DNA of 64,000 bases from Oscillospiraceae bacterium (GTDB lineage Bacteria > Bacillota > Clostridia > Oscillospirales > CAG-272), in the NCBI GenBank assembly GCA_015063325.1, contig SVUK01000004.1, positions 2,583 to 66,582 of the forward strand, read 5' to 3'. Both the position numbers and the translations under genes were made by a program. The notes under the pieces are model-generated. The model was not told where the DNA came from and ran no database searches. It was given only the letters and a program-made list of their open reading frames with translations. Shown here piece after piece: positions 2,229-48,529 of this stretch (the stretch's first letter is position 1; every line of letters begins with the position of its first letter).

Positions 2229-2257
2229 TTGACTTTTCCAATTCCATGTGATAAAAT
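2229..2257 (+). promoter_or_regulatory. Sigma-A-type promoter
   Basis: TTGACT-17 bp-TAAAAT with an extended -10 TG. Confidence 0.6.
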
Positions 2258-2318
2258 AAAAATGAATAAGAATCGCTTCCGTTCGGGAGAAAAAATAAAC
2301 AAAGGCGGTAAAAATCAA

Positions 2319-5300
2319 ATGAAAACAAAGATTCGTGTTCTGATCAGTGTTTTGCTCGTGTCCGTTCTGCTGTTTTCAGCGCTTTCGGTTGTTGTGAATG
2401 CGCAAAAAGCGGAATCTCAAACCATTTTTGCGGACGAGCTGTTCGATCTTCTTTTTCAGGGGAAAATACCGCTGACCGACGAAGAGCGTGCCTATCTGCG
2501 CTCCGGCGAGACGCTTTCCGTAACCTATTCAATGGATGACGTAAACGAATCGGATGTTGTTATTGTTAATCCGGAGTATACGGGACTTTTGCAAATTACG
2601 GCAAAAGAGGTCAAAAAAACGCTCGAAAACGGAATAGAAGTAATTTGGACGCCTAAATCGGTTTGCGCAAACGGTGAAAGCGAGACCAATCTTGAAGAAA
2701 AAAATAACTACTACAGCTATACTTATGACAAGCAGTGGCATTCAGGAGATGTTACGGTTACCGTTCAATATACCATGAGCATTTTGGTTCCGGAAACGGT
2801 TCTTAATCGAATTTTGACGGCTGACATTGATGCGGTCGTTGCCAAGCGCGCGAAGATTATTAGCGATTTTAATCAGGCGAAAAACGACTACGATAAATAT
2901 CAAAACGATCTCTCGAATTATCAAACCGCGCATGCTCAATGGGTGATTGATAAGCAGGCGTATGACGATTATTTGACCCAAAAAGAAGCATACGACCAAA
3001 GTGTAGCCGATTACAATGACCTTGCCGCGCAATGGCAGACATACAACGACTATCAAACGGCTCTTGAAGAATACGGAACCAAGAGCCAGCAATATACGTC
3101 CTACAAAGCGACCATGGACAAGGTAGATGCCTGCCTTGCCATTATGGAGAGTATGTTTTCGGTTGCCGAGGAGGGCGAATATAGCTTTTATCAAAGTTTG
3201 GCCGGGAAATCGGACGACGCAATTCTAAACGATTTAACGGTGCTGACCCAATTTGGTGTAGTGAGTGCTGATATTGAAGATGCAAAAGAGGAAATTGATG
3301 CAATTAAAAGTATATTGAGTTCGTATCAAGAGAAGCTTAGCGCATCTTACGAGACAGATTTTGCAAAAAAAGAAACGTTGTTCCAAGAATATACAAACAG
3401 TTATAGCAATTTACGTAAAAGTTTTAAAAACCTTGATAACTATTTGAATGATATTTACGGAAAGGATGGAGTGCAGCAGGGGATCGAATCTGACTATTCG
3501 GATAGTGCTTTTCATTTTGCCCAATTTTTGACGCAACTTACAAATTATAAGGGACAGCTGGTGGCGGAACAAGCCGACCCGAATAAAATTACCTTCCCGG
3601 AATCCTATTTGGAGGAGCCAACTGCTCCAACGGTAGTCACCCAGCCGGAAGAACAGCTTCCCGAAACCAATCCGGCAGACGAGCCTGCGCCCACCGCTGT
3701 AAAAAATCCCGGTGCAGAACCCACAGAGCCGCCCTCGGTTGCCAATCCCGGCGAGTCTGTCGATTTTTCGCAGTTGAGCCCGGAGGAAACCGCATTGTTG
3801 GCAAAGTATGATGCCAACGAGCTTCCGGATCGGAGCGGCGAGAAAAAGAGCGAGCCGCAAACCCATCAGTTTGGTGAAACGGTAACAAAATCGATTGTTC
3901 AAACAGTAGAGTACAAAAATAAACGTACCGTTACTTTCCTGAATGAACGCGGTGACCAAAAAGGAGAAACGCTCGTTCTCGAATACGGGGAGGAAATTAC
4001 CGTAACGCCTCCGGAACTGCTCCAGTCGGATTTAAAATCCAACACCATTGCAAAAACATACGAATTTGACGGTTGGTGCCTTACCACAAACAAGAGCAAA
4101 CTATTTTCCTTTAAAACTCCAATTACCTCCAATATCAAACTTGCGCCCCACTATATTGAAACGTTAATCGAATATACAGTAACATGGGAAGTAGATGACA
4201 GAATTATCCGGCAAGAAAAAATTGCATACGGCGAATTGCCGCCGAAACCCCAAACACCGACAAGAAAAGATGATGGAACCGGAAACTTTATCTATTTGTT
4301 TGACGGTTGGTCTCCCGATGTCAAGGCGGTTGAAGGAGATGTAACTTATGTTGCAACATGGAGAGCTTCTCCGCGTACTTGCAAAATTACTTGGCAACTT
4401 TGGAAAGGGGAATCTAGCACCATTTCGGTAAACAATGGTGATATCCCCGTATATCAAAACGGTGCAACGCCGCAAAGACCCTCCGACGAAAACTACAGCT
4501 ATGAGTTTTTGCAATGGTCGCCAAAAATTGAAGCGGCAACAAAAGATATTATTTATACTGCCGTATGGAAGGCTACTTCCCTGAATCCACAGTCAGAAAC
4601 TTATACCATCACATGGGATTTCGATAACGGTGCAGACCCGGTTCAGGAACAGCTGGTAGCCGGAACGGTCCCGGAATACAGCGGAATTCCCACAAAACCG
4701 TCCAGCGCGCAATATAGCTATGAATTTGACGGTTGGACTCCGGAGCCTGTCGCGGTTACCGGCAATGCTACCTATAAAGCAAAATGGAAAACCACTTTAC
4801 GCGAATATACCATTACGTGGGATCTGGGATACGAAGGCGGCACGCCGAAAACAGAAACACTGAAATACGGCGATCCCTTGAACTATGGGGAAACGCCTAC
4901 CAGACCGGCGGAAGGGGATACCGTTTATACCTTTATCGGTTGGAATCCTGCGCCCGGCGCAACGGTAACGGGTGCCGCAACCTATACCGCGCAGTGGACG
5001 ACCAACGCAACGCTTTATACCATTACGTGGAACGTCGATGGAAAAGAGACCCACGTGCAATATTACGGCGGCGTGACCCCAATATACGACGGAACGCCTA
5101 CCAAAGAGCAGGACGCGCAATATACCTATGAATTTGACGGGTGGGATAAAGAGATTGTTCCGGCAGATGGTGACGTTACCTACACTGCTCAATGGAAAAC
5201 CACTTTGCGCGAATATACCATTACGTGGGTCGTAGACGGAAAGGAAACTACTGTACAGGTTGCTTACGGAAAGGATCCGAATTATCGGGGAACACCGACA

Positions 5301-6851
5301 AAGGCATCAACTGCATCCAACGTCTACGAATTTAACGGCTGGTCACCTGCGCTCGCTAAGGTCGAGGGCGATGCCACATATACCGCTCAGTGGACAAAAA
5401 CGCCGCGCGAATATACTATTACATGGGACCTTGACAATGGAACCGAACCGATTACAAGTCAGGTCGCCTATGGCAAAATCCCCACATTTCCTGAAGAATT
5501 TCCGCTTGTCAAAGCACCGGATGAACAATACAGCTATGAATTTGATAAGTGGGAACCCGAGCTGAAGGCGGTGACCAGAAACGAGACTTATACCGCCAAA
5601 TGGAAGACGGGGCCGCGGAGCTTTGAGATCACATGGAATCTTGGCTATGGAGAACCGGCAACGAGTACGGCAGAGGTTATGAGCGGTGAAACGCCCGTTC
5701 CGCCCGAAGGCGCAACCGCGCGCCCGGACGACGAACACTATCGCTATACTTTCGTCGGCTGGTCGCCCGAAATCGCTCCTGCAAATGCCGCTGTCACCTA
5801 CACGGCAGTATGGGAAAAAGTGCCGCTGGTAACGGATGTGGAGGGAAATACGTACCCCACGCAAATTGATGGCGAAACGGTCGTCGTAGATGCGGCGCAA
5901 AGTCAACTTGGCTTGAAAAACGTTATTGATTTTGCCGCCGAAGAAAACAAAACCATAACGATAAAGCGTGAAAACACCGAGTTTATTTTGCAGGCAAAGA
6001 TGTTCAAAGAACAGTTGCCCGGTGTGAATGGCATCCGTTGGGTTGAAGATACCGAGAACGGCGGTTTCCGCGTGGAATTGATCAATTCTGATGGAAACGC
6101 AATGGAAACTAAACTGACCTATCAGGTTACAATTCCCACCGTTGACGATAACCGGAAACTGAGCATTTATGAGCTTGACGGCGAAGGGATGACCGAGATT
6201 AAATATTACATAATGGAGTCTATCCCCAACCGTTTGACCTACACGGCGCAGGTCGGCAAAACGGTCGTTTGCAAAATTCGGTATAAACTGGTGATTGAGG
6301 GAACTTATTTCTCCAACCTTCCTGATTTTGCGGAACCCGGAGAGACAATCTCTCTTGCCGCGGTGAGGTGCGAGACCGGCTTTGAGGTTATCGGTGCAAC
6401 GCTGATCCACGAGGATGGAACTGAAGAAAAAATCGGAACCTCCTTTACCATGCCTGCCGAATTCGTAACGGTCAGATTGCAGGTCAATCCCATTCAATAC
6501 CATATCGTTTTCAAGTGCAACGATCAGGTGATTTCCGATAAATCCTATGACTACGGCGAAAATATTGAAGTTCCTGCCGATCCCACTTTGCCGGATGAGG
6601 AAGGGTACAAGTTTGAGTTTGTCGGTTGGATTCCCCAGGTCAGCCAGACCGTGGCAGGTGATGCTCGCGAACAGGTCTATGAGGCGAAGTTTGTCAAAGT
6701 TCCCAACGCGCCGCAGGTGGAAGAAAAAACCGGATTCATTGATTCTCCTGCGTTTGCAGTTCTGATTATGGCATTGATCGTCGGCGCTGTGACTGCCGTT
6801 GCTGTCGTTGCAGTTGTTGTTCGGATGAAGAAAAAATCTGATGATAACTAA
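2319..6851 (+). CDS. Large membrane-anchored surface protein: coiled coil, Pro-rich segment and multiple InlB B-repeat/Listeria-Bacteroides-type repeats
   Basis: Signal peptide; roughly 9-10 repeats of about 70 aa (YTITW...PTK...YEFDGW.P...V.GDATYTAQW); C-terminal TM helix followed by RMKKK. Confidence 0.85.
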   Translation: MKTKIRVLISVLLVSVLLFSALSVVVNAQKAESQTIFADELFDLLFQGKIPLTDEERAYLRSGETLSVTYSMDDVNESDVVIVNPEYTGLLQITAKEVKKTLENGIEVIWTPKSVCANGESETNLEEKNNYYSYTYDKQWHSGDVTVTVQYTMSILVPETVLNRILTADIDAVVAKRAKIISDFNQAKNDYDKYQNDLSNYQTAHAQWVIDKQAYDDYLTQKEAYDQSVADYNDLAAQWQTYNDYQTALEEYGTKSQQYTSYKATMDKVDACLAIMESMFSVAEEGEYSFYQSLAGKSDDAILNDLTVLTQFGVVSADIEDAKEEIDAIKSILSSYQEKLSASYETDFAKKETLFQEYTNSYSNLRKSFKNLDNYLNDIYGKDGVQQGIESDYSDSAFHFAQFLTQLTNYKGQLVAEQADPNKITFPESYLEEPTAPTVVTQPEEQLPETNPADEPAPTAVKNPGAEPTEPPSVANPGESVDFSQLSPEETALLAKYDANELPDRSGEKKSEPQTHQFGETVTKSIVQTVEYKNKRTVTFLNERGDQKGETLVLEYGEEITVTPPELLQSDLKSNTIAKTYEFDGWCLTTNKSKLFSFKTPITSNIKLAPHYIETLIEYTVTWEVDDRIIRQEKIAYGELPPKPQTPTRKDDGTGNFIYLFDGWSPDVKAVEGDVTYVATWRASPRTCKITWQLWKGESSTISVNNGDIPVYQNGATPQRPSDENYSYEFLQWSPKIEAATKDIIYTAVWKATSLNPQSETYTITWDFDNGADPVQEQLVAGTVPEYSGIPTKPSSAQYSYEFDGWTPEPVAVTGNATYKAKWKTTLREYTITWDLGYEGGTPKTETLKYGDPLNYGETPTRPAEGDTVYTFIGWNPAPGATVTGAATYTAQWTTNATLYTITWNVDGKETHVQYYGGVTPIYDGTPTKEQDAQYTYEFDGWDKEIVPADGDVTYTAQWKTTLREYTITWVVDGKETTVQVAYGKDPNYRGTPTKASTASNVYEFNGWSPALAKVEGDATYTAQWTKTPREYTITWDLDNGTEPITSQVAYGKIPTFPEEFPLVKAPDEQYSYEFDKWEPELKAVTRNETYTAKWKTGPRSFEITWNLGYGEPATSTAEVMSGETPVPPEGATARPDDEHYRYTFVGWSPEIAPANAAVTYTAVWEKVPLVTDVEGNTYPTQIDGETVVVDAAQSQLGLKNVIDFAAEENKTITIKRENTEFILQAKMFKEQLPGVNGIRWVEDTENGGFRVELINSDGNAMETKLTYQVTIPTVDDNRKLSIYELDGEGMTEIKYYIMESIPNRLTYTAQVGKTVVCKIRYKLVIEGTYFSNLPDFAEPGETISLAAVRCETGFEVIGATLIHEDGTEEKIGTSFTMPAEFVTVRLQVNPIQYHIVFKCNDQVISDKSYDYGENIEVPADPTLPDEEGYKFEFVGWIPQVSQTVAGDAREQVYEAKFVKVPNAPQVEEKTGFIDSPAFAVLIMALIVGAVTAVAVVAVVVRMKKKSDDN

Positions 6852-30956: not shown

Positions 30957-31030
30957 GCAGATGTAGCTCAATGGTAGAGCGTCCGCTTCCCAAGCCGAAA
31001 ACGCGGGTTCGATTCCCGTCATCTGCTCCA
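30957..31030 (+). tRNA. tRNA-Gly (anticodon CCC)
   Basis: Acceptor stem GCAGATG/CATCTGC, D-arm GCTC/GAGC, anticodon loop TT-CCC-AA, T-loop GGTTCGATTCC, encoded CCA; 74 nt. Confidence 0.93.
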
Positions 31031-31059
31031 TCTAAGTAGTATGAAAATGCTACGCACAA

Positions 31060-31100
31060 CAAAAACCACAAGATATGGTTTCCGTATCTTGTGGTTTTTG
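31060..31100 (+). terminator. Terminator after the tRNA
   Basis: CAAAAACCACAAGATATGG...CCGTATCTTGTGGTTTTTG. Confidence 0.75.
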
Positions 31101-31334
31101 CTATATTTTGTTGTTTTCAAGCAAAACGGTGGTCTTGTGTAATCTTCGATTTTGACTGCTGACATTTGGCGGTTTTTCTATAAAAACAGGTTTTGAACCC
31201 GCGACTATGTTCAAAACCGGAACAATCATCAAATAACATATTTCATTCGACAGGTCGTGCGGATCGTTTCGTGCGACCTGTTTTCATATAAAATGATAGT
31301 GGCTGGAAAATAAAAAAATAAAGGAGCGAGGAAA

Positions 31335-31630
31335 ATGAAATACAAGGATTGGTTAAAAGAGTGGCTGGACAACTATGTTGAGCCAACGTCGAAAGAGGAC
31401 CTCTAGCAGATATTCGGAGATCGTCAGGCAACACCTGATCCCAAAACTCGGAGAAAGCGAGATGGATGAAATCACACCGATTGTCCTACAACATTTCGTT
31501 ACAGAGTTATTGCAAACAGGAAATCTGAGAACAGGGAAAGGTCTGTCTGCAAACTTTGTTAGTAGCATCATCAATGTGATGCAAAGTTCGTTGCGGACGG
31601 CTTATCAACTCGGTTATACAAAGGAATATA
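31335..31630 (+). pseudogene. Tyrosine recombinase/integrase N-terminal (SAM-like) fragment, frameshifted and truncated
   Basis: MKYKDWLKEWLDNYVEPTSKE, then a frameshift into RTSSRYSEIVRQHLIPKLG...LSANFVSSIINVMQSSLRTAYQLGY; no catalytic domain follows. Confidence 0.75.
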
Positions 31631-31807
31631 ACGCAATAGCACTTTTGACAACCTGCGGTCATCAAAAGCGCATTGCGCTCTGCGAGGCAGATGCCACGGC
31701 GAAAAATAAACGCTTTTCCAGGCGCTTATTTTTCTTGTGGTCAGGCTACGCTCCACGCTCTGCGGAGCGTACCCGAAAGAGCCACAATGAATTTCGGAAG
31801 CCGCTTC

Positions 31808-31836
31808 TGAATATCGAACATTTGTTCGTTTGTCAA
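31808..31836 (-). promoter_or_regulatory. Promoter with a perfect Bacillota LexA box in its spacer
   Basis: Minus strand TTGACA-17 bp-TATTCA; CGAAC-ATTT-GTTCG at 31815-31828. Confidence 0.65.
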
Positions 31837-31962
31837 GAGAAAATACGAAACTTTTTTCGTTTTTTTTCTTTTTCTTATTATCGTCTGCGATTCGGCCTGA
31901 AAGCGGCGACCTATCGGTGCGGATCCGTGCTGAAAAATTCATCAAAATTTCATTTTTGATAC

Positions 31963-31991
31963 TTGAAAAAACATTTGTACTATGTTATACT
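31963..31991 (+). promoter_or_regulatory. Candidate promoter for the giant surface protein gene
   Basis: TTGAAA-17 bp-TATACT with an extended TG. Confidence 0.55.
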
Positions 31992-32212
31992 GAAAGATTG
32001 AAAGGCGAAGTGCAAAGAATGCGGAAAGGGGCTTGACGAGTTCGATGAAGTTTGCGATGATCTCGTATAGACGGCATAAGTCTGGTTTCTTTTTCGTTGG
32101 ACTCGGTTACATAAATAAGTAACAACAATACAGCGTCACGTGCAGGTTGGCATCCTTGTGCCATTTGATGAGAGCGCTGTTTTATATAAACAACTAAACA
32201 GGAGGAGATCAA

Positions 32213-35200
32213 ATGATCACAACAAAAAGAAGACTTTTGAGAGGACTGATCGCGGTTATTATGATCATCAGTATGTTTGCGATTGTCCACATCATGCCGA
32301 TGGCGGCAAAGGCTGATGGCGATGTGCCTGTGCCCGGCGGCAGGGTCATTGTATGGAGCGGCGAGACGCTCCTGAATACCTTTTCGATGCGCGACGGTGA
32401 AACCCATAAGCTGACCGGGTCTGATTCCGCAAACGGGATCACCGTCAATTATTTGGGCGGTCAGTTATTATCCGACTCTGGGTTTTATGCAAACTACGAA
32501 AGCAGCACCAACTCTAATACGAAGATCATACGTCTGAACAACTCTGACAGTGAGCTGACGTTTACGTCAGCCTCCGACAACAGTTTTATCACTAAGATCG
32601 TCATAGAGTTCGATAAGTATTTTACTATTTCCGGAGCTACCAGCGATACCACGATCGACCACATTGTGGTCAACCACGGCGCGTGGACGAATGAGGATGT
32701 AATAGGCAGCAACGGCAAGCACACGCTGACTCTGGAAGGCAATGCGGCGCGCAGCGTCACAATAAGAAAAAACAGCGATACCTATCATTACGGGATCCGT
32801 GGGATCACCTCCATCCGGTTCTACATAACGGAAAACCTCTATACGATTCCCACTCTTGAGAGCGGCTTTTACGTGTATGATCAGGAGGACGGCGGCGTCA
32901 AGATCGTCCACGGCAATCCCGCCAGACCGCTCGCCGGCTCGCCGTTCATTGTCAGAAGCGGCGGCAAGATCGCCGGCTTTTCTCAGGCTGACGCCGACGA
33001 TACGACGTCCTATACGATAGAAAATCCTACGGCGGCGTTTACATTTGAGCTCGACGATGGCAGCGATACGATAACAGTCGACAATATCGACGATTTCATG
33101 CTGGCGTTGGGGCTGGCGCGCTACCGTTCGATCTACCTCTCGGCCGACCTCACCTTTGATGGCGGCTTTACGATCACGAGAACTGTCAGCATAGACCTCA
33201 AAGGGAAGTCGCTGACTTGCGACAGTTCTGCGACTGACAAAACCATCCGTGTGACCGGCGGTAATCCTACTGTTACGAGCACCGGCTATTATTGGTATGA
33301 TATCGTAAACAGTGATATCAGCGGCTTTGACAAGATCGAGGTCACCGGCGGTTCGCTGACGATCAAAGGCGGCAGATATGATCTCCCCGAAGGCTTCAGC
33401 GGAAACGTCAGACTGTCGGGCGGTCTCTACAAGCTGAATGATGCGGTCGATATGAATAAACTGGCCGACAGCGCCGTCAACCATTTGCCTGTTGAGATCG
33501 ACGGCACTTGGGCAGGGCTCAAATTTCACGTTCATGACTATAATACGATCTTTGAAACGCTTAGCGACGGCGGTATTCATTATATCAATCGCTGTGACGG
33601 ATGCGACCACACCGTAAAAGAGTGGACGCTCACCAACGAAGAGATCAACACGCTGATCGGGCTCAACGGCGGCGCCTTTACTCCCGTGACCAACTGGAAC
33701 CCGAATTCACCGGGCTCAGTTACCCTCTATCTGAGAATAACCGAGGACACCTACAACACCGCGATCGCCGCGCCCTATAATATGAACGCCGACGCGCTGA
33801 AAATGCTCAGAGACAACGGTATTCTCGGCAATTGGGAAACACACGGCGCATGGACGAACTATTCAACAGAGAACGGCGGCTATCACTCGGATGACGTGGA
33901 TATCACCTTCGATGATGACGGGTATCGTTATGTAGGCGTCGACGAACCGATGACCGTCACCTCGAAAAACGGCAAAAATATCTACCGCGCCGTGATACAT
34001 ATAGATGAATATTACAAAGAGCGGACTAACCAGACGTACGTCAACAGAGGCAATGCGATCATATCCGACGACGCTTTGACCATCACGGTAACGAATATCA
34101 ACTCCAAGTCCTTCACGTTTAACTTCAGCGGAGCATCTTATGAGTTCGTGCCGGTCGAATCGGTCGAGTTGTGTTATGCAGGCAGCGGCCAAAACATCAG
34201 CTATGTTACGGTGAACACGACGCCGGATGCCGATAACTGCTACGGCCACACGATGACCTATGACTATCGCGATCACACCTATACCTTACACTTCACCAGC
34301 ACGAACCCGCATCATCATCTGCAAGGCGAGCCTGACTGGAATCTCACGGATGACGGCGTCAATGCTACTATGACGGCAACAACGCATTGTACCGTATGCG
34401 GCGAAGAACTCCATCTTAACGTTGAATCGTACTCTTCGGGCACCCGCGAGGCGACGTATACGCGAGAAAGAACAAAGCTTTGGCACTTCCTTGCGCAAAC
34501 GGACCAATACTATTATTATGATTATTTGCAGGTCATAGGTCCGAAGCTCCCGGTCACCACTCATTCTATTGAAGATGGAAACGGCAACATACTCGAATAC
34601 TATGAAGATGAGAGTACCGGCAAGTATTTCATTGATCTTGACGGTCCGGCCATTGCGCTTGATCAAATTCGCATTCCGGAAACCAAGATCGACGCTGTTC
34701 CGGCAGCCGACGAGGCGGACGGCAACATCGAGTATTACACCTGCTCGAACGGAAGATACTTCAAGCTCGAAGACGGCAAGTATATTGAGATCGCAAGAAA
34801 CGCCTGGGTGTCACACATAGGCGAGTCTGAAGAGATCGATTTGACGATGCATCGCGGTACGATGGTCTTCACCGGTCAGAATGTCAAGGTGACTGCTGAC
34901 ATGATCTGGGACTGGTATAGCTCTTATAAAGGTGTAACCTTGTTCGGCTCTGCAGCACATGTTACCGGCTTAAACGGCAAGAAGATCAAAGCGATCGAAG
35001 TGACCAGATCGAAGGACGCAAGCTACGCTAGCCATATCTATATCAACGTTGGCGGAGAATATGATCATGACTATACTTTGATCGGCGACAGCGGCGATGT
35101 ATTTATGTACGGCAACTTATCCGCTTCCGAGGTAGCAGTGTACGGCGACTTTAACAATATCACGTCTGTCAAGGTCTGGTACTATGATGATTCGATGATC

Positions 35201-38200
35201 GTCACTTATACGAAGGTAGGGGCGATTGATCCCACTCCTACTGCGACGGGCAACATCGAGTACTACATCGGTCCTGACGGCAGATACTACGTCAGAGACG
35301 GTGCAAGATACGTGAGGATCGCGGAGAACTCCTGGATCATTCCCAAAGTCGTTCTGACCAAGTACGAAACGACACCGGCGACCGAAAACGCTGCCGGCAA
35401 CACCGAGTATTACGCCGGCGACAACGGCAAGTATTACGTCAAGAACGGCGACGATTACGATGAGATCACGTATAACTCGTGGATTATTCCCGCCCTCGAC
35501 GGCAGTACGTTCGAAACCATTGTGATACACACCGAATGGGATCCAAAAACCCTTTTCAGCGGAGAAAACGCCGACGTATCCTGCGACATACCCACCTTTA
35601 ATGAAATCTGCGTTGACGGCCAAGAAAACAGAAACTTGTACATTAACGCGAAATACGGCAAGACGTTTTATAAGGTCGTATTCCATATCTCAAGTTTGGA
35701 AGGAAACTCCGTTTACGCAAAGACCGACAAGGGTGCGATAGAGGTTTCCGATGACGGACGGACCGTCACGGTATGGAACTTCAGCTCCGACAGTCTCATG
35801 CTTTCCAACAAGATGGCCTTCTACGTAAATTCCGTTGACGTGTATTATACCGGCAGACCGGTCACGATCCTGACCTATTTAGATGAGAGTTTCGTTTTCA
35901 ACGGCTCCAACGATTACTACGGCGATCTTGCGTCCGCCCACGCCGACCTGTGCTATTCCGACGGCGCTTATGTCAGAACGTATGAAACCGGTGAAGAATC
36001 AAGTAAGATAACCGTCACCGGAAAGAACGGACAGGAACTCTACAAAGTAGTCTTCCACGTCAGTTATAACACGGAAAGAAGCTGGTGGGCGAAGGTCGAT
36101 CACGGCAACATCTCCGTATCCGATGACGGCACGACGATCACCGTGACGGACATCGGCGCAAACTCCGTCACGCTTTCGACGAATTTCTGTGACGAAGATC
36201 ATTTGTGGGACAGAGAAGAATGGGAGGAAGACATTCCCTGGGATACCTACTTCCAGGTAAGCTCTGTCGACATTTACTGCTGGGTAAACGAAGCAGAGAG
36301 AGTTACCTATTTGAAAGTTCCCGCAACGGCTCCTACCTTCACCTCGGCGGGCAACACCGAGTACTACGTCGGCTCGAACGGCAAATACTATGTCAAGGAC
36401 GGCGGAGACTACACCGAGATCGCCGAAAATTCGTGGATCATCCCCGTCATCACCCTTGAAAAGGTCGAGGCGAAAGCCGCCACCGTTGACGAGGCGGGCA
36501 ACACCGAGTATTATATCGGCTCGGACGGCAAGTATTACGTCAAGAACGGAAACGATTATACCGAGGTAGCAAAGAATTCCTGGGTCATTCCCAAGATCAC
36601 TTCCTATACGGTAACCTGGAAAAACTACAACGGCACCACTCTTGAAACCGATGTAAAACAGGTAACCGGCGCCAATCCGTCCTATGACGGTGCAACGCCT
36701 ACCAAACCCGCAGATGCGGACTACGTTTATACCTTCTCGGGCTGGACTCCCGCGGTCGTTCCCGTATCGGGCAACGCGACCTATACGGCTGTCTTCACCG
36801 CTTCCCCGAAACCCGACGTTGAGTTTTCCGGCAGAGTCTTTGACGACGGTGTACTCGAAGCAGATCAGCTCTCGCTCGGCGACGTCATCTCCCGCGGTAT
36901 CTACTTCTTTAATTGCAACGGTAAAACCATCGTTCTCAAGGGCGGCAGATACGGCACAAGAAATGGTGATGTATTCACGGTAGTATCCGCCAACAGTGCC
37001 GGATACACCGATCTGGGTATTACATTCAATGAATTCTGTGAACTGTATGACTATGACGGCGGTAGCCTTTTCTTCCCTGCTAAACAGAGCGGCGAGCTCG
37101 CCGATGCCGTGCTCGTTATGGCAATAGACGGCAACACGATCACCCTCGGCGGTTGTGAGCTTCCGGAGGGTTACGTTCACATCACATACGAGAGAGTTTG
37201 GGAAGAATTGCCCACCGAAACCCAACCGGGTATCCGTGAACACTACATCGGCTCCGACGGCAAGTATTATATTATGGAAAACGGCGAATATGTCGAGGTC
37301 GATTACGACTCCCTGATCATTCCGCCTACAGGCGGCGGCTCCGACCAGCCCGGCGGAGAAGGATCACAGGACGGACTCACAGCTTCTCAGATGACCGCCG
37401 ATATGATCGAGAATATGCATGATGTCTCCGATATGCCCGGCAACTTTGTTCAGGTCGATTTGGATACTGCAAGGTCATGGACCGGCGCGCCGCAGAACGG
37501 TTGGGCGCATCTGATTTACGCAACCGAAAATGGTGACCTGAAAGAGGTTGGATTCGAAAACGGAATGGTAATGGGCGACGGTATGCTCAGAATATCGGAT
37601 TTGTCGATGTTCCTTAATTGGGGCGAAGCGGTTTATTACGTTACCGGCGCAGGTTCCGGCTCCGGCGGACAGGGCTCACAGGGCGGTCTTACGGTTGTTC
37701 AGATGACCGCTGATATGGCTGAAAATGTTCATTTTGCCTATGATATGCCCGGCAACTTTGTTCAGGTCGATCTGGACACTGCAAGGTCATGGACCGGCGC
37801 GCCGCAGAACGGTAGGGCTTATTTGGTCTATGGAGTTGAAAATGAAGATCTGCTGAAAGCAGTCGTGTTTAATTGGGGAGAGTTTAACGACGATAGAACT
37901 TTCTTCGCACAAGAATTACGAGATTTCATCAATTGTGGTGAGAGCGTCTATTATGTCACCGGCTCAGGCTCACAGGGCGGCTCAGGTCAACAGGGGGGCA
38001 ATCTTGCGGTTTCTCAGATGACCGCAGATATGGCAATGAGTATCAATTCCGTCAACGATATGCCCGGCAACTTCGTTCAGGTCGATTTGGACACTGCAAG
38101 ATCATGGACCAGCGCGCCGCAGAACGGCAGATCATATCTGATCTATGGTGTTGAAAATGAAGAACGTCTGAAAGCTATTGTTTTCTTTGAGGGACGCTTT

Positions 38201-40393
38201 GAAGACGAAAGAGGATTCTTTGCAGATGAATTCAGAATGTTCATCGACTGGGGCGAGAGCGTCTATTATGTCACCGGTTCCGGCTCACAGGGCGGCGGTA
38301 ATGAACCTCAGATCACCTACACCAGAGTCGACTACAAGGCGCCTACCCCCAACGAAACCGGTAACCAAGAGTACTACATCGGTTCGGACGGAAACTATTA
38401 CGAGAAATACAACGATGAATATTATCAGAATCCGATCGACTACTTCGTTATCCCCAAGGTTTCCGTAACACGCCGCGCGGCGGTTGTGGCTACTCCCAAC
38501 GCAGCCGGCAACATCGAGTACTACACCGGTAATGACGGTAAGTATTATGTGAAGAACGGCAACATCTACGAAGAGGTTTCTTCTGCTTCCGTTACCATCG
38601 CAAAGGTTAGTGTCACCCGCCATGAGGCAGTCGCCGCTACCTACACCTCGGAGGGCAATACCGAATACTACATTGGCGCTGACGGCAAGTACTATGTAAA
38701 GAACGGCAACAACTATACCGAAACAACGCTTGAGGCTGTTACCATTGCAAGACTTACGCTTGTTCATCATAATGCGGTCGCCGCTTCCTGCACGGCAAAC
38801 GGCAATACCGAGTACTGGCATGACGAAGCGAACGACAAGTACTTCTCAGACGCAAATGGAGAACATGAGATTTCGCTTGCAGAAACGGTTGTACCCGCAG
38901 GCGGACATTCCTTTGGCGAATGGGTTGTGACCAAAGAGGCGCAAGTGGGCGTGAAGGGCGAAGAAACACGCACCTGCTCTGTTTGCGGCAAGACTGAAAC
39001 GAGAGAGATCGCAGCTCTGCCCTATGTACCGGTTACAAATGAAGACGGTGACAAAGTGTACGCCGAAACCGTGACAGAAGAAGTCAAAGATGTAACCGTA
39101 CTCTTTGCACAAGCCAAAGCGGAGGAAGGCACGGTCGAAGTTCAATCGAACGATTTTGCAATCGTATTTGACAGCGCTGCGGTCAGTGCGATCGGCGACG
39201 CCAATGTGACGCTTTCGGCAAAGGTAGTCACCGAAGACCTGCCGGAGAATGTACCGGAAAATGCTGAACTCGTACTGGAAGTCACACTCACGGGCGCAAC
39301 GTTCGAAGGCGGTCAGGCAAAGGTAACCATTCCGTTTGAAAAGGAAGCTCCCGCGGGTAAAGTTGCCAAGGTTTATTATATTGATGATGACGGCAACAAA
39401 ACCGATATGAACGCAACGTTTGAAAACGGCAAGGTAACTTTTGTAACCAACCACTTCTCCACCTATGTGTTGGTGTTTGAAGAGGCTGAGGCTGATGAAG
39501 ATACCCTGAAATTCTACGGCGCATCACTCACCCTGCAGAACAATCTGAAAGTGAACTTCTTTGTGGAAAAAGATTTGATCGATGGAAACGGATATGAAAA
39601 TCCCTACGTCCTCTTTAACATGAACGGCAACGAGATCACCGTTTCGGATTATACTGTCAGCGGAGACTATTATGTATTCAGCTTCAGCAACATTGCTCCC
39701 GACAAGATGAACGATACCATCACCGCTGCGCTTCACGCCACTCGTGACAGCATTGAATATGTCAGCGACGAACTGGAATACAGCATCGCGCAATATTGCT
39801 ATTCCATGCTGAGCAAAGAGACAACAAGTGATGCGTTGCGCACCTTGCTTGTAGATCTTCTTCATTATGGCGCGGCATCTCAGCTTTATACCGACTATAA
39901 TACGGATGCATTGGTTGACGCTTCTTTGACTGCGGAACAACTCGCGTGGGGCACGGCGGCAGATCCGGATATGACGTCGGTGACAAATGCTCGCTATCAC
40001 GAGATCGATAATCCGTCGGTATCATGGAGCGGTGTGTCACTGAACCTGAATGATTCAATCACCATGCAGTTCGTTTTCGCCGTGGAAAGCACCGAAGGAG
40101 TAACGGTTAAGGTTACAAACGGAAACGATGCTCTTTTGAAAGAAATTTCAGAGGAGGAACTTGTAGCTGCCGGCGGATACTATGTTGCAAAGTTCAAAGG
40201 GCTTACTGCCGGACAGATGAGCGATACCGTTTACGTCACGGCGTATCGTGGAGAGGAAGCGATCAGCAACACGGTGGCGTACAGCATTGAATCTTACGCC
40301 TGCGCAAAGCAAAATGACGCGAATGCTGTTCTCGCAAACCTGGTCAAAGCCATGATGAAATACGGAAATTCGGCATTTGTCTACGCGCAATGA
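32213..40393 (+). CDS. Giant (2726 aa) secreted multi-repeat surface protein with two C-terminal copies of the shared unnamed domain
   Basis: RBS AGGAGG; signal peptide ending AAKA; about 11 GN(T/I)EYY.G.DGKYYVKNG repeats; three ~100-aa QMTADM..DMPGNFVQVDLDTARSW repeats; one InlB-type repeat; CxxC segments. Confidence 0.9.
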   Translation: MITTKRRLLRGLIAVIMIISMFAIVHIMPMAAKADGDVPVPGGRVIVWSGETLLNTFSMRDGETHKLTGSDSANGITVNYLGGQLLSDSGFYANYESSTNSNTKIIRLNNSDSELTFTSASDNSFITKIVIEFDKYFTISGATSDTTIDHIVVNHGAWTNEDVIGSNGKHTLTLEGNAARSVTIRKNSDTYHYGIRGITSIRFYITENLYTIPTLESGFYVYDQEDGGVKIVHGNPARPLAGSPFIVRSGGKIAGFSQADADDTTSYTIENPTAAFTFELDDGSDTITVDNIDDFMLALGLARYRSIYLSADLTFDGGFTITRTVSIDLKGKSLTCDSSATDKTIRVTGGNPTVTSTGYYWYDIVNSDISGFDKIEVTGGSLTIKGGRYDLPEGFSGNVRLSGGLYKLNDAVDMNKLADSAVNHLPVEIDGTWAGLKFHVHDYNTIFETLSDGGIHYINRCDGCDHTVKEWTLTNEEINTLIGLNGGAFTPVTNWNPNSPGSVTLYLRITEDTYNTAIAAPYNMNADALKMLRDNGILGNWETHGAWTNYSTENGGYHSDDVDITFDDDGYRYVGVDEPMTVTSKNGKNIYRAVIHIDEYYKERTNQTYVNRGNAIISDDALTITVTNINSKSFTFNFSGASYEFVPVESVELCYAGSGQNISYVTVNTTPDADNCYGHTMTYDYRDHTYTLHFTSTNPHHHLQGEPDWNLTDDGVNATMTATTHCTVCGEELHLNVESYSSGTREATYTRERTKLWHFLAQTDQYYYYDYLQVIGPKLPVTTHSIEDGNGNILEYYEDESTGKYFIDLDGPAIALDQIRIPETKIDAVPAADEADGNIEYYTCSNGRYFKLEDGKYIEIARNAWVSHIGESEEIDLTMHRGTMVFTGQNVKVTADMIWDWYSSYKGVTLFGSAAHVTGLNGKKIKAIEVTRSKDASYASHIYINVGGEYDHDYTLIGDSGDVFMYGNLSASEVAVYGDFNNITSVKVWYYDDSMIVTYTKVGAIDPTPTATGNIEYYIGPDGRYYVRDGARYVRIAENSWIIPKVVLTKYETTPATENAAGNTEYYAGDNGKYYVKNGDDYDEITYNSWIIPALDGSTFETIVIHTEWDPKTLFSGENADVSCDIPTFNEICVDGQENRNLYINAKYGKTFYKVVFHISSLEGNSVYAKTDKGAIEVSDDGRTVTVWNFSSDSLMLSNKMAFYVNSVDVYYTGRPVTILTYLDESFVFNGSNDYYGDLASAHADLCYSDGAYVRTYETGEESSKITVTGKNGQELYKVVFHVSYNTERSWWAKVDHGNISVSDDGTTITVTDIGANSVTLSTNFCDEDHLWDREEWEEDIPWDTYFQVSSVDIYCWVNEAERVTYLKVPATAPTFTSAGNTEYYVGSNGKYYVKDGGDYTEIAENSWIIPVITLEKVEAKAATVDEAGNTEYYIGSDGKYYVKNGNDYTEVAKNSWVIPKITSYTVTWKNYNGTTLETDVKQVTGANPSYDGATPTKPADADYVYTFSGWTPAVVPVSGNATYTAVFTASPKPDVEFSGRVFDDGVLEADQLSLGDVISRGIYFFNCNGKTIVLKGGRYGTRNGDVFTVVSANSAGYTDLGITFNEFCELYDYDGGSLFFPAKQSGELADAVLVMAIDGNTITLGGCELPEGYVHITYERVWEELPTETQPGIREHYIGSDGKYYIMENGEYVEVDYDSLIIPPTGGGSDQPGGEGSQDGLTASQMTADMIENMHDVSDMPGNFVQVDLDTARSWTGAPQNGWAHLIYATENGDLKEVGFENGMVMGDGMLRISDLSMFLNWGEAVYYVTGAGSGSGGQGSQGGLTVVQMTADMAENVHFAYDMPGNFVQVDLDTARSWTGAPQNGRAYLVYGVENEDLLKAVVFNWGEFNDDRTFFAQELRDFINCGESVYYVTGSGSQGGSGQQGGNLAVSQMTADMAMSINSVNDMPGNFVQVDLDTARSWTSAPQNGRSYLIYGVENEERLKAIVFFEGRFEDERGFFADEFRMFIDWGESVYYVTGSGSQGGGNEPQITYTRVDYKAPTPNETGNQEYYIGSDGNYYEKYNDEYYQNPIDYFVIPKVSVTRRAAVVATPNAAGNIEYYTGNDGKYYVKNGNIYEEVSSASVTIAKVSVTRHEAVAATYTSEGNTEYYIGADGKYYVKNGNNYTETTLEAVTIARLTLVHHNAVAASCTANGNTEYWHDEANDKYFSDANGEHEISLAETVVPAGGHSFGEWVVTKEAQVGVKGEETRTCSVCGKTETREIAALPYVPVTNEDGDKVYAETVTEEVKDVTVLFAQAKAEEGTVEVQSNDFAIVFDSAAVSAIGDANVTLSAKVVTEDLPENVPENAELVLEVTLTGATFEGGQAKVTIPFEKEAPAGKVAKVYYIDDDGNKTDMNATFENGKVTFVTNHFSTYVLVFEEAEADEDTLKFYGASLTLQNNLKVNFFVEKDLIDGNGYENPYVLFNMNGNEITVSDYTVSGDYYVFSFSNIAPDKMNDTITAALHATRDSIEYVSDELEYSIAQYCYSMLSKETTSDALRTLLVDLLHYGAASQLYTDYNTDALVDASLTAEQLAWGTAADPDMTSVTNARYHEIDNPSVSWSGVSLNLNDSITMQFVFAVESTEGVTVKVTNGNDALLKEISEEELVAAGGYYVAKFKGLTAGQMSDTVYVTAYRGEEAISNTVAYSIESYACAKQNDANAVLANLVKAMMKYGNSAFVYAQ
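37380..38300 (+). repeat. Three intragenic tandem repeats of about 310 bp
   Basis: CAGATGACCGC.GATATG...GATATGCCCGGCAACTT.GTTCAGGTCGAT.TGGA.ACTGCAAG.TCATGGACC recurs at about 37388, 37700 and 38015. Confidence 0.9.
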
Positions 40394-40407
40394 AAGGATT
40401 GTGTGAA

Positions 40408-40554
40408 ATGAATAAAGAAAAGCAAAAGTTTATAGAACCTAAGATCGAGATCATTCGAATCAGAACGGAAGATATTATAACTACAAGTTCCGGAACAAAT
40501 CAGAATGATGACTCGGGTATCAACCTTCCCATTGATCCGTTTATTATAACATGA
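40408..40554 (+). CDS. 48-aa small peptide, FxxP...DIITTS leader family (copy 2)
   Basis: RBS AAAGGA, ATG 40408: MNKEKQKFIEPKIEIIRIRTEDIITTSSGTNQNDDSGINLPIDPFIIT*; ATGA overlap with the next gene. Confidence 0.8.
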   Translation: MNKEKQKFIEPKIEIIRIRTEDIITTSSGTNQNDDSGINLPIDPFIIT

Positions 40555-40808
40555 AGAAAACAATAGTCTTTATTCTCCTGTTCGTCATATTGCTTTTATC
40601 GGCAGTCGGCTGCACGGATCCCAAGAAGGATCCGTCTGCCGAAACGCAACCGACGAACAGCACAGAAACAAATTCAACCGATCAAACAGACTCAACAATG
40701 GCGCCGGAGACCTCGTCTTCTTCCGGCACTCAAACTACGCCGAGCACAGATCCACCGTTTGTCACAGGTAATGACGGCGTTGATTTGCCCGTTGACTCGT
40801 TTGATTAA
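40551..40808 (+). CDS. Small lipoprotein: lipobox, Ser/Thr-rich linker and a short C-terminal motif
   Basis: MKKTIVFILLFVILLLSAVG-C; tail GNDGVDLPVDSFD. Confidence 0.85.
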   Translation: MKKTIVFILLFVILLLSAVGCTDPKKDPSAETQPTNSTETNSTDQTDSTMAPETSSSSGTQTTPSTDPPFVTGNDGVDLPVDSFD

Positions 40809-40814
40809 GCATTA

Positions 40815-40854
40815 AAAAATCGCGGTGAAGCAGAAATGCTCCGCCGCGATTTTT
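40815..40854 (+). terminator. Intrinsic terminator closing the giant protein-peptide-lipoprotein operon
   Basis: AAAAATCGCGG...CCGCGATTTTT. Confidence 0.7.
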
Positions 40855-40915
40855 CTCTCTGCAGTGAAACTGCCCTCACTCGAAAGTGGGGGCAGGATTC
40901 TTGATATGGGGTTTG

Positions 40916-41194
40916 CTATGCTTTGTCTCTGATTACGCCAAACGGTTCGGTCATCAGCCGGACGCCGAGTCGAAAGCCATAGGAGAACGCTTCGACCTCT
41001 GCCGTGGCGTTCACTTCCTTTACCGCTGAGTCGTATTTCTCAAACAGTTCGGCTTGCTCGGGGGTTAAAGAAGCGCCGAGTCTTTCCTGATCCTTTGCCG
41101 CAATGCGAAGCAGGTTTTTGTACTCTTTATTTACCTCGAGGAATTCTTCGACCGGATGGACGTTCCCGTACCACAAGTTTTCGAGTATTGTCAT
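40916..41194 (-). CDS. Small mobile-element-associated protein (DUF6809-like)
   Basis: ILENLWYGNVHP.E...AFSYGFRLGVRLM pattern. Confidence 0.75.
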   Translation of the reverse strand: MTILENLWYGNVHPVEEFLEVNKEYKNLLRIAAKDQERLGASLTPEQAELFEKYDSAVKEVNATAEVEAFSYGFRLGVRLMTEPFGVIRDKA

Positions 41195-41562
41195 GCGAAC
41201 ACCACCTCACTTTCCACGATCTCTTCGGCGCGATTGCGGATGTTGTTCATGCGGCGCACCCATTCCATTTGGTCTTTGGCTTTGAGTAGTTCGGTAATGC
41301 CTTCGACTTGTTTCATTTCTTCTACCAGTTGAGAAAACATTTCCTCTGCCTGGCGGTCAATCTCTTCGATATGCTCTTTCAGCTTGCCCGAAAGCAACAG
41401 GTCCGAATAGGTGACCCGCTTATGGTTACGCAGATACTCGTGATACATCATCCCGAAGCTGCCGACTTTCGGTGCCTCCGGCGCTTCCAGGCAGGGATAA
41501 TAGTAGTCGCCCACCAATTCATATTTCAGCCCGTTTTTTTCGTCTGTAATGTACTTTTCCAT
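41191..41562 (-). CDS. tnpV: TnpV-family transposon-encoded protein
   Basis: NGLKYELVGDYYYPCL, GITELLKAKDQMEWVRRMNNIRNRAEEIV. Confidence 0.85.
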   Translation of the reverse strand: MEKYITDEKNGLKYELVGDYYYPCLEAPEAPKVGSFGMMYHEYLRNHKRVTYSDLLLSGKLKEHIEEIDRQAEEMFSQLVEEMKQVEGITELLKAKDQMEWVRRMNNIRNRAEEIVESEVVFA

Positions 41563-41659
41563 TTGAGTTTCCTCCGATAAGTTTGATTTCACTCCGCAAT
41601 TCCCGTGTTTACCGTCTAAAACACGTTTTGCTTCGTTTTGTCCTTATCGTGGCTCACTC

Positions 41660-46577: not shown

Positions 46578-46697
46578 ATGAAAAAACTCTATCAACCGCC
46601 GGAAATTCTGAAAATTTCAATTGATTTACAGGATATTCTGACCACCTCGCCGGGGAGCAGTGAACTTGACCCGGACATGAAGATTTCAAAGCCCTAA
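46578..46697 (+). CDS. 39-aa small peptide, YxxP...DILTTS leader family (copy 3)
   Basis: RBS AAGGAG, ATG 46578: MKKLYQPPEILKISIDLQDILTTSPGSSELDPDMKISKP*; first ORF after the promoter. Confidence 0.8.
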   Translation: MKKLYQPPEILKISIDLQDILTTSPGSSELDPDMKISKP

Positions 46698-46732: not shown

Positions 46733-48529
46733 ATGAAAAAGAAGATTTTATGGTTTGTTTTGACCGCGGTTTGCCTTGCGGCGTTGCTTGGCGCATTTTT
46801 TGCCGTCAATGCAACCGAAACACCGGCAACCGACATTGTCGGACACAACCTCGCGCTGGATGACAGCATTCAGATCGACATTATTTATTATGTTGATCAA
46901 ACGGCTCCCGAAGGGGCAGAGACCGGCGTTCTCTGTTGGTTTGCGCCGCAGGAGAGCTATACTCTTGAAAACGCGGAGTACAAGCTGAAGCAAAACGGCA
47001 CGAGAATCATCGGCGGAAAAGAATACGCGCAGTATAATTCCCCGCGCATCCACGCAAAGATGATCACGCAGGACGTTTACGCCGTTTCCTACGTCAAAGT
47101 AGGCAATGAAGTTACCTACAGCGATCTGGATAAATACAGCGTGTTGCAGTATTGCTACAACAAAAAAGGCAGTACCTTCGTTCGTCCCGGCGGCACGGCA
47201 ACCTTGGGCGAGCTGATTACCGATATGCTCAACTACGGCGCAACGGTGCAGAAATACTTCAATTTTAATACCGACCGTTTGGCAAATGCCGAGTACCACA
47301 TGAACACCGTGGTGGACGGCACGCTGAAAGACGGAACGGCGCAAGGGCTTTACTACGTTGGCGAGACGATTGTCCTGTCGACCGATAGGGTCATTCCCGA
47401 GGGCTACCGTTTGGTTTGGCGGAACAGCGCCGGCGTTTCGCTGGGCGTTGGGCGGACGATTGAGGTTGCCGCTCCCTCAAGAAATGAAACCTACACCCCC
47501 GTTTTGCAGGACGCAAAACTTGCGAAAGCCGCCTATACACGCATTGATGCAGACGGAAACGAGGACGAGAACGGCGACTACATTCTGTTCGGTTCCTATC
47601 CGCAAAGAGAAATTACCGACGGCACGCTCAAGCTCATGCTCATGATGCAGGTCGGCACGGTGCCCACCCCCGAAGACCCGAAGGGCTGGACTTCCTACGG
47701 CTACTATATCGAAGGCACCGTACAGGATTATATGTGGTACGTCGATGTTTCCTACAACGGCGAAACCTACCGCGGCGTGTATTTCACTTCCTATCGGTCG
47801 GATTGGACAACAAAAGCTTCCAACAAGGATAACACCCTTCAGGACGATTACGGATATACCCCGAATAATTTCTATTGGTTCCTCTATGAGCCGCTCAAAT
47901 GGAGAATTCTTTCCGAGGAGGACGGCACGGCACTGATCCTTTGCGAAAGCATTATTGACAGCCAGCAGTATTATAACAACACCGACAATCGCACCATTGA
48001 CGGGGAGACGATCTATCCAAGCAACTACGAACACAGCGACATTCGCGCATGGTTGAATAAGGTCTTCTACGAAACGGCGTTTGACAAATTGCAACAAGAG
48101 TTGATCGAAACAACGTTGGTTGACAACAGCGCAAGAAGCACGAACCCAAACAATAGCGCAACAGCATTCAATGGTGGAATCAATCTGTATACATGTAAAG
48201 ATACCGAGGATAATGTATTCCTCCTCAGTGAAAAAGAAGCTACAACTTCGGCATATGGTTTTGGAACATATGACAGTTATGGTCCGACTAATACAAGATG
48301 TAAGAAAACCACGGCATATGCAAAAGTACAAGGTGTATGGATTCCTTCTGCAGATTACGCCGATAACGGGCAATGGTGGCTCAGGTCACCGGATTATGCC
48401 TATTCTACCAACGGGCGTTGCATCAGCCACGGTGGATGGGCAAACCCGGATAATCGCTGTAATCCTAACAGTACACGTTTTGGCATTGTCCCTGCTATGC
48501 AAATTTGGCTTGGAACTCTGCCCGAGTAG
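46733..48529 (+). CDS. Secreted protein with the shared unnamed N-terminal domain and a DUF6273-like C-terminal domain
   Basis: Signal peptide; FGSYPQ, YEPLKWRIL, SDIRAWLN, DNVFLLSEKE, WWLRSP...GIVPAM motifs. Confidence 0.85.
   Translation: MKKKILWFVLTAVCLAALLGAFFAVNATETPATDIVGHNLALDDSIQIDIIYYVDQTAPEGAETGVLCWFAPQESYTLENAEYKLKQNGTRIIGGKEYAQYNSPRIHAKMITQDVYAVSYVKVGNEVTYSDLDKYSVLQYCYNKKGSTFVRPGGTATLGELITDMLNYGATVQKYFNFNTDRLANAEYHMNTVVDGTLKDGTAQGLYYVGETIVLSTDRVIPEGYRLVWRNSAGVSLGVGRTIEVAAPSRNETYTPVLQDAKLAKAAYTRIDADGNEDENGDYILFGSYPQREITDGTLKLMLMMQVGTVPTPEDPKGWTSYGYYIEGTVQDYMWYVDVSYNGETYRGVYFTSYRSDWTTKASNKDNTLQDDYGYTPNNFYWFLYEPLKWRILSEEDGTALILCESIIDSQQYYNNTDNRTIDGETIYPSNYEHSDIRAWLNKVFYETAFDKLQQELIETTLVDNSARSTNPNNSATAFNGGINLYTCKDTEDNVFLLSEKEATTSAYGFGTYDSYGPTNTRCKKTTAYAKVQGVWIPSADYADNGQWWLRSPDYAYSTNGRCISHGGWANPDNRCNPNSTRFGIVPAMQIWLGTLPE

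Follow-up and report, generated by a model that had tools for sequence, protein, structure and literature searches.

A leader-type peptide and a coupled lipoprotein share a C-terminal tail that, in the peptide, is predicted to dock on a module of a giant secreted protein from an Oscillospiraceae bacterium

In the cellulosomes of Clostridia and ruminococci, secreted proteins are anchored non-covalently to cell-bound scaffoldins through cohesin-dockerin pairs, and the Csc/WxL complexes of lactobacilli and enterococci combine large surface proteins that have no anchor with a small protein that has one. PDZ-type domains and donor-strand complementation are known cases in which C-terminal peptides are recognised through beta-augmentation. 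Here we describe a three-gene cassette in a 64,000-nucleotide (nt) stretch of DNA from an Oscillospiraceae bacterium, referred to below as the window (assembly GCA_015063325.1, contig SVUK01000004.1, positions 2,583 to 66,582 of the forward strand). The cassette encodes a giant secreted protein, a leader-type peptide of 48 amino acids (aa) and an 85-aa lipoprotein. Peptide and lipoprotein carry the same short motif near their C-termini, and the peptide's copy is predicted to dock on a C-terminal module of the giant protein. The nearest known systems, namely cohesin-dockerin, beta-augmentation, and precursors of ribosomally synthesized peptides with post-translational modifications (RiPPs) that depend on a RiPP recognition element (RRE), resemble the cassette in mechanism only.

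As with cohesin and dockerin, a single module found on many unrelated secreted proteins would dock non-covalently to a cell-bound partner, and a related cassette of the same genome carries a cohesin domain. Unlike that pair, the ligand here would be a linear tail of ~9 residues rather than a calcium-binding dockerin of ~70 residues, the receptor module would be on the secreted protein with a lipoprotein as anchor, and a leader-type peptide with the same tail is included. A dockerin/cohesin pair was itself considered and rejected, as the peptide, lipoprotein and giant protein gave no such Pfam match and the structural matches of the module were FN3/CBM56-like. The likeness to Csc/WxL lies in a cluster that joins large secreted proteins lacking a covalent anchor with a small anchored partner. 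The domains are unrelated (a distinction drawn from the lack of Pfam matches only), and Csc/WxL complexes have no shared peptide tail and no leader-type peptide.

The shared motif has the form G-[IV]-[ND]-L-P-[IV]-D-x-F. In the peptide, encoded on the plus strand at 40408-40554 and called peptide 2 in an earlier sequence-only reading of this DNA, it occurs as G-I-N-L-P-I-D-P-F and is followed by three further residues before the stop codon; that reading had ended the peptide at PIDPF. In the lipoprotein, encoded on the same strand at 40551-40808, it is G-V-D-L-P-V-D-S-F, exactly as had been read, and the translational coupling described there is also present, with the lipoprotein ATG overlapping the peptide TGA as ATGA (40551-40554). 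Alignment of the two tails gave 11 columns, of which five are identical (G, L, P, D and F) and most others are conservative changes. The strict pattern G[IVL][NDE]LP[IVL]D.[FWY] was matched only by these two among 44,277 six-frame open reading frames (ORFs) of the whole genome (2.85 million residues), a count that says only that nothing else matches since the pattern was built from the pair itself. The underlying DNA agrees at 18 of 33 bases, with the same codon used for two of the five identical residues, and the likeness has thus been preserved at the level of the protein and does not stem from a recent duplication of DNA. The likeness between the two tails, which the sequence-only reading had pointed out, is more than chance.

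The rest of the lipoprotein consists of a signal peptide and a linker, in agreement with the lipobox and Ser/Thr/Pro-rich tether recognized earlier. The signal peptide (40551-40613, plus strand) has a M-K-K start and a hydrophobic stretch and ends in a lipobox, A-V-G-C, at Cys21. The low-complexity linker of Ser, Thr, Pro and acidic residues (Asp/Glu) spans residues 22-72 (40614-40766), and the C-terminal tail residues 73-85 (40767-40805). The N-terminus gave weak matches to many lipoprotein models, the lipobox Cys is invariant in seven of seven lipoproteins of different loci and in nine of nine orthologues, and the genome encodes signal peptidase II Lsp (PF01252, 141.8 bits) and Lgt (PF01790, 234.7 and 116 bits). 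Judged from its sequence, the 85-aa ORF is a true Sec/Lgt/Lsp lipoprotein. The same motif is therefore carried behind a YxxP-type leader by one gene and behind a lipid anchor by the other, and the two delivery routes proposed earlier are correct as anatomy.

We found eight orthologues of the lipoprotein, 85-147 aa long and none with a functional name. In the alignment of nine orthologues, the conserved parts were the signal peptide and the last ~20 residues, with L79, P80 and F84 invariant in all nine, and the linker contained a 62-residue indel. Among the seven lipoproteins of different loci, the linker ranged from ~30 to ~170 residues, and common features were limited to the lipobox Cys and, at the C-terminus, h-h-x-[LMF]-P-x-[DV]-x-[FW]; the latter was present in six, and the seventh had a different acidic tail. 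In loci L003 and L004 (genomes G016 and G013), the tail-bearing lipoprotein is 346-350 aa long and has a SASA (sialate-O-acetylesterase-like) domain between the linker and L-P-E-D-x-F, which shows that the tail is not restricted to lipoproteins made of linker only. A sortase substrate of the LPXTG kind was rejected, given that L-P-x-D-x-F stands 0-3 residues from the C-terminus and no hydrophobic segment lies behind it.

The first gene of the cassette (32213-40393, plus strand) encodes, from its ORF and translation, a secreted protein of 2,726 aa with a signal-peptide-like N-terminus and no recognised wall or membrane anchor in Pfam/NCBIfam scans. The same scans placed no family above cut-off in the giant protein, the peptide or the lipoprotein. 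At its C-terminus (39497-40390, plus strand) is a module of 298 aa, the predicted tail receptor, in which a unit of beta-sandwich plus helical hairpin occurs twice. Its model had a predicted local distance difference test (pLDDT) value of 94.6 and a predicted template modelling (pTM) score of 0.90. The module matched no Pfam family, and the protein atlas returned only clusters labelled 'hypothetical protein'. Elsewhere in the window (2229-6851) is the gene of a 1,540-aa protein that has a membrane segment at its C-terminus and whose Listeria-Bacteroides repeats recur in residues 1449-1576 of the giant protein.

The sequence-only reading had suggested a docking role for the motif, as a tag that engages the giant protein through its C-terminal domains, and had named co-folding of these domains with the tails as a check. 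We co-folded the 298-aa module (alignment A4) with the whole peptide (alignment A1), scoring the peptide as partner, in three runs and with three controls. The interaction prediction score from aligned errors (ipSAE) was 0.81, 0.85 and 0.84 in the three runs (reported as 0.84), and the best of the three controls gave 0.25. The pair thereby passed a mark that 58 of 80 solved complexes attain, as do 2 of 110 mismatched pairs, a calibration that is only roughly valid here, where own alignments were used. The partner had a pLDDT of 46 or more, and 65% or more of the contacts were common between runs. Confident contacts of the peptide were confined to residues 35-45 (40510-40542, plus strand), that is, to the shared motif, and the leader lay outside the interface. 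The lowest expected errors were at L40, D43 and I38 of the peptide, whose lipoprotein equivalents are L, D and V; across the contacting positions as a whole, the lipoprotein residues (V, D, L, P, V, D, S and F) are identical or similar to those of the peptide.

On the module side, the predicted interface comprises residues 6-14, 20, 22, 100, 103-104, 114, 117, 235, 237-239, 293 and 296-297. Conservation is higher in this set of 23 residues than in the remainder of the module (0.533 vs 0.34, a difference reached by 2 of 20,000 random sets), and the set includes eight of the module's 20 most conserved positions. As in beta-augmentation, the aromatic-ended tail is predicted to run along an edge strand (residues 6-14) and against helices (100-117 and 293-297). 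The fold is an FN3/CBM56-like sandwich with a helical hairpin, not PDZ, and the likeness is one of mechanism only, as predicted by the model.

We examined the neighbourhood of the peptide gene in a sample of 89 peptide ORFs in 86 loci, of which 20 loci (17 ORFs) had been fetched by the module itself. The module ended at most 400 nt upstream of the peptide ORF in 46 cases, started at most 400 nt downstream in six, was farther away in three and was not detected in 34. Among the 72 ORFs of loci fetched by the peptide alone, the module ended within 400 nt upstream in 35. Twelve peptide genes are present in the genome of the window, seven of them directly upstream of the gene for a module-bearing protein and two downstream. 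These seven precede secreted proteins with the beta-sandwich module at the N-terminus, including, in the window, a GDSL/CE2 esterase (339-2093) and a DUF6273 protein (46733-48526). Whether the module is encoded at the start or at the end of the neighbouring gene, the peptide gene thus lies on that side. The passengers of the module are unrelated (GDSL/CE2 esterase, DUF6273, cohesin and BspA-type leucine-rich repeat [LRR] proteins) and have no known anchor domain in Pfam scans, as would be expected of a localisation module.

A short lipoprotein or membrane-anchored protein adjoins the peptide in ~11 loci (L001, L003, L004, L006, L007, L009, L019, L020, L022, L042 and L058), and a metagenome scan added 17 peptide loci with no new lipoprotein pair. 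For eight pairs, we summed the local alignment scores of each peptide core against the tail of its own neighbour and compared the sum with derangements; L004 (a near copy of L003), L006 (a 50-aa lipoprotein that may be truncated), L010 (a lipoprotein, but no peptide detected) and L058 (found later) were left out. The observed sum was 223, compared with a derangement mean of 145.6 (standard deviation 16.1, maximum 204), and none of 14,833 derangements reached it. The own partner ranked first in L009 and L042, whose tail types differ greatly. Clear matches were seen in the window pair, in L009 (both tails G-E-W) and in L042 (both E-E-G-E-F-G-D-[WF]-E), and moderate ones in L003 and L022, both of the LP class.

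Mimicry between the tails of the peptide and the anchored protein thus stands as a match within loci, and as a general rule it falls short, holding in only ~5 of 9 pairs. A second cassette of the same genome (L019, contig C6:11470-13379) is a case in point: it encodes a cohesin-domain protein of 465 aa that terminates in the module, a peptide of 39 aa and, coupled through ATGA, a lipoprotein of 121 aa, and the lipoprotein ends in L-P-x-D-x-F while the tail of its peptide does not match. A weaker echo of the tails that the sequence-only reading had seen at another peptide locus, locus 1, was not borne out, since its best local score was reached by 1,196 of 2,000 shuffled tails. We regard that echo as chance, and a paralogous pair on contig C2 shows no co-variation at the site.

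The interpretation that we favour, at about an even chance of being right, is that the tail is a docking tag and the lipoprotein a membrane tether of the module-bearing giant protein. The lipoprotein would present its tail, G-h-(D/N)-L-P-h-(D/N)-x-F, on a flexible spacer of ~50 residues; the tail would pack on the module's first beta-strand and its helical hairpins; and the otherwise anchorless giant protein would be held non-covalently at the membrane surface. The peptide, as a RiPP-like precursor, would probably be a cytoplasmic substrate of a PqqD / HprK-like / S24-like trio whose genes lie in another part of the genome, and as a cap, competitor or adaptor it would occupy the same module site. 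The proposal draws on the anatomy, the conservation of the tail, the partial co-variation of pairs, synteny and co-occurrence as observed, and on a docking that is predicted. The docking-tag idea of the sequence-only reading is thus supported in part, in silico, by the co-fold and the conserved interface, and not by mimicry in every pair.

Several points weigh against this interpretation. The co-fold result concerns the peptide only, and docking of tail on module is a prediction, with a mark that mismatched pairs can also reach (2/110) and that is only roughly calibrated for own alignments. The conservation of the module groove could be structural in cause. The peptide has no signal peptide, and no C39-type exporter domain is found in the genome, while the module is secreted. 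The first sandwich resembles the glucan-binding CBM56, and the module might therefore bind wall glycan. No tail match is seen in L007, L019 or L020, nor in L058 outside the permutation test. Finally, only ~11 of 89 peptide ORFs adjoin a short anchored protein, and most peptide loci are without a lipoprotein; the lipoprotein is thus an optional add-on, and the module's more general partner would be the peptide.

The peptide is one member of a very large family. Its leader occupies residues 1-27 (40408-40488, plus strand) and consists of F/Y-x-x-P, an alternating hydrophobic stretch and D-h-h-T-x-S. A homology search with the single peptide returned its own cluster only. A family profile (A1), which the window peptide matches at 53.5 bits, was built from 16 peptides. 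The profile found 97 proteins in a word-indexed collection, none functionally named and one labelled 'hypothetical protein', and an exhaustive search gave 4,763 clusters at E <= 0.001. Among 232 members, the leader ends in D-[IV]-[IL]-T-[TAS]-S (D in 231, T in 212 and S in 231). The cores are 8-63 aa long with a median of 17 aa, and two or more Cys occur in only four of them; in some members the terminal tail resembles the one of the window lipoprotein. In the genome, three of the 12 family genes are in the window (203-325, 40408-40554 and 46578-46697) and nine on contigs C2, C5, C6, C13, C14 (two), C17 and C20 (two).

Such cores could also be read by a third party, such as a C-terminal-peptide-binding protease, a PDZ-type protein, a transporter or the PqqD / HprK-like / S24-like set, with the co-fold being a false positive. 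In keeping with this, the motif stands at the C-terminus or within three residues of it in the window pair, and an acidic core with a terminal aromatic residue is general in the family (net negative in 221 of 232 members; an aromatic within the last six positions in 163 of 232). The few mismatched pairs that pass the co-fold mark, the uncalibrated alignments and the four of nine pairs that do not match point the same way. We consider a third-party reader unlikely, however, in that the cassettes contain no candidate for it, the module is the only constant neighbour, and the predicted interface is the most conserved surface of the module and excludes the leader.

The leader is of a kind seen in RiPP biosynthesis, and the conserved leader and variable core of the family are those of an RRE-dependent RiPP precursor. 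Like the RRE-dependent RiPP and lasso leaders described in passages of one paper (PMC7533575), the family has a YxxP-type leader, PqqD beside an HprK-like gene and co-occurrence at the genome level. Compared with the precursors in those passages, no B2 partner was found, Thr is at -3 and not -2, cores go down to 8 residues, and the 12 genes are scattered, mostly beside genes for module-bearing surface proteins and away from a single trio. A lasso peptide was rejected on these grounds: Thr is at -3, and not penultimate, in 212 of 232 members, the cores, in which a lasso would need a ring-forming Asp or Glu at position 7-9, can have as few as 8 residues, and the best match to the B2 peptidase PF13471 was 19.8 bits, below the cut-off of 26, in a 782-aa frame elsewhere. 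The leader of the locus 1 peptide gave a weak match to a lasso-peptide model, at 15.2 bits under a cut-off of 33. No lasso cyclase or B2 genes stand beside the PqqD trio, a statement about the neighbourhood, as the cyclase family itself was not searched for. A double-glycine leader exported by a C39 transporter was likewise rejected; the window peptide has S-G after the leader, and the 95.6% complete genome contains no match to PF03412. In other taxa (L044 and L049; L080, L081 and L087), the same leader precedes quite different cores, some Cys-rich and next to HprK-like and PqqD genes and a large ORF, and others rich in His, Gly and Pro and adjoining a 318-aa ORF. The leader therefore seems common to several product classes.

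The only PqqD gene of the genome (C17:403997-404191, 67.9 bits) lies in the trio (L021, C17:403536-405105, minus strand), which encodes an HprK-like kinase, the PqqD-family protein and an S24/S26-like peptidase. The trio stands alone, with no precursor gene adjoining, and is far from all 12 peptide genes. In 60 related genomes, which are not independent and of which many are incomplete, 29 had both the peptide and the HprK-like gene, two the peptide only, five the kinase only and 24 neither. Outside the genus, the kinase was present in four of four genomes with the peptide vs 3 of 20 without it, again among relatives that are not independent. A PqqD-like gene adjoins the peptide in L009, L024, L043, L044, L051 and L085, and an HprK-like gene in L009, L043, L044 and L077. 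The trio is likely the processing set for the 12 scattered peptides.

These associations also fit a different account, in which peptide and lipoprotein are pro-forms of one diffusible peptide, signal or bacteriocin-like, and the giant protein is a mere neighbour. One form would be matured by the leader-dependent PqqD/kinase/peptidase set, and the other exported by Sec and then clipped from its anchor. Phr-type pro-peptides are a precedent for clipped export. The variable core behind a conserved leader, the HprK-like kinase in 29 of the 31 peptide-bearing related genomes, the PqqD or kinase genes beside some peptides and a lipoprotein composed of nothing but anchor, spacer and tail are all consistent with such a product. 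Against it, the genes are coupled by overlap to that of a 2,726-aa structural protein, the 12 peptide genes of a 1.68-Mb genome are mostly directly beside a module-bearing protein, no receptor, regulator or exporter is nearby, and the co-fold prediction places the tail on the module of the neighbour. We therefore hold a diffusible product to be quite unlikely.

The structure of the module bears on whether it might itself be the anchor. A Foldseek search of the PDB returned generic tandem immunoglobulin-like rows only, with a query-normalised TM of at most 0.25. In a wide structural search, the first sandwich resembled CBM56/FN3 with Z of 9.2-9.4 and a root-mean-square deviation of 2.3-2.4 over 82-83 residues, at a sequence identity of 12-14%. 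Since these best matches are beta-1,3-glucan-binding modules of CBM56, the module could be a CBM-like anchor to wall glycan, with tails that modulate it or have no part in anchoring. The tails might, for example, carry a phospho- or glyco-modification recognised by the module, and HprK-like kinase and nucleotidyltransferase-like genes do accompany some peptides. In lasso-peptide clusters, according to the passages cited above, such enzymes phosphorylate and glycosylate the C-terminal Ser (PMC7533575). We find this very unlikely, as a Z of ~9 is barely above the background of 7-8, the identity is low, and the lipoprotein, lacking a leader, could not serve leader-dependent enzymes as a substrate. 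It is most improbable that the lipoprotein 3' end was simply duplicated from the peptide 3' end to leave a likeness without present function: the L042 tails, which agree at 31 of 39 bases and use the same codon for 7 of 10 identical residues, would fit a fairly recent duplication or gene conversion, but in the window pair the DNA has diverged (18/33 bases) while the motif was kept, the tail is the conserved part in nine orthologues, and distant taxa show the mimicry again with tails of three unrelated types.

The module was found in 17 of 61 related genomes, all of the same genus, and also in cassettes of Ruminococcus, Roseburia, Lachnospiraceae and other Clostridia genomes; isolates of Ruminococcus flavefaciens and R. 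callidus are among the carriers of related cassettes. Its closest relative, 53% identical, is in a metagenome-assembled genome of Roseburia. The nearest relative within the genus (L002, G005:C160; 47-49% identity) lies in a locus with no lipoprotein gene and a peptide tail of the L-P-D-D-E-W type. This module carries a 27-residue acidic and aromatic C-terminal extension, which was disordered (pLDDT 32-44) when the two were folded together.

There is also a wider proposal, which we offer tentatively and consider doubtful. The YxxP-leader peptides (4,763 clusters) would be partners of surface modules and not antibiotics or signals, with a hand-over to the lipoprotein. One peptide per module-bearing gene would plug its tail into the conserved groove of the module, and its leader would recruit the PqqD / HprK-like / S24-like set; the peptide would thereby act as an in-trans leader that caps, marks or processes the module protein. 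In some cassettes, a tail-bearing lipoprotein or membrane protein would then fill the groove in its place outside the cell and so serve as the anchor. This would amount to a peptide-mediated, sortase-independent hand-over and anchoring that is widespread in gut Clostridia.

The genome consists of 1.68 Mb in 24 contigs and is 95.6% complete, and the window lies on contig C18. Ahead of the giant gene are promoter-like sites at 31963-31991 and 32033-32061. A Shine-Dalgarno-like AAGGA (40394-40398, plus strand) precedes the peptide ATG at 40408 by 9 nt, and an alternative peptide ATG at 40390 overlaps the stop of the giant gene as a second ATGA (40390-40393). Directly 3' of the lipoprotein stop are a terminator-like hairpin with flanking A and U runs (40815-40854) and a second one (40870-40896), both on the plus strand. 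The fold of 40806-40905 has a free energy of -48 kcal/mol (z -7.24), and none of 200 shuffles was equally stable. The ATGA overlaps, the AAGGA and the two 3' hairpins together indicate that the giant, peptide and lipoprotein genes are read as one operon, whose end is marked by the terminator-like pair of hairpins. Contigs from RNA libraries were identical to 40265-40417 and 40578-40753 (run X16) and to 40255-40432 (run X19), whereas run X10 yielded none; this attests to presence in RNA libraries only, and not to transcription or to the structure of the operon.

On the 5' side of the operon (30957-31959) are a tRNA-Gly(ccc) gene at 30957-31030 and an N-terminal fragment of an integrase, and on the 3' side (40916-41592) are DUF6809 and TnpV genes on the minus strand. 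With a tRNA-Gly and integrase fragment on one side and DUF6809 and TnpV on the other, the operon seems to lie within a mobile-element remnant.

In the literature searched, which comprised main texts only, we found no description of the peptide family or the cassette, and leader and tail strings matched only an unrelated plant paper. The peptide family, the module and the cassette, for which we found no family, name or paper, are apparently undescribed. If the docking-tag interpretation is true, it would give a very large unannotated peptide family its first concrete partner, and would do the same for an unannotated module that gut and rumen Clostridia carry on esterases, cohesin proteins, LRR adhesins and giant proteins. 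An extracellular pair of short tag and 300-residue catcher would then also have practical uses. The interpretation would further add a new principle for surface retention in Gram-positive bacteria, in which a tail of ~9 residues on a lipid-anchored spacer docks into the module of a secreted protein, and would mean that RiPP-type leader peptides serve as protein ligands and not as free natural-product precursors.

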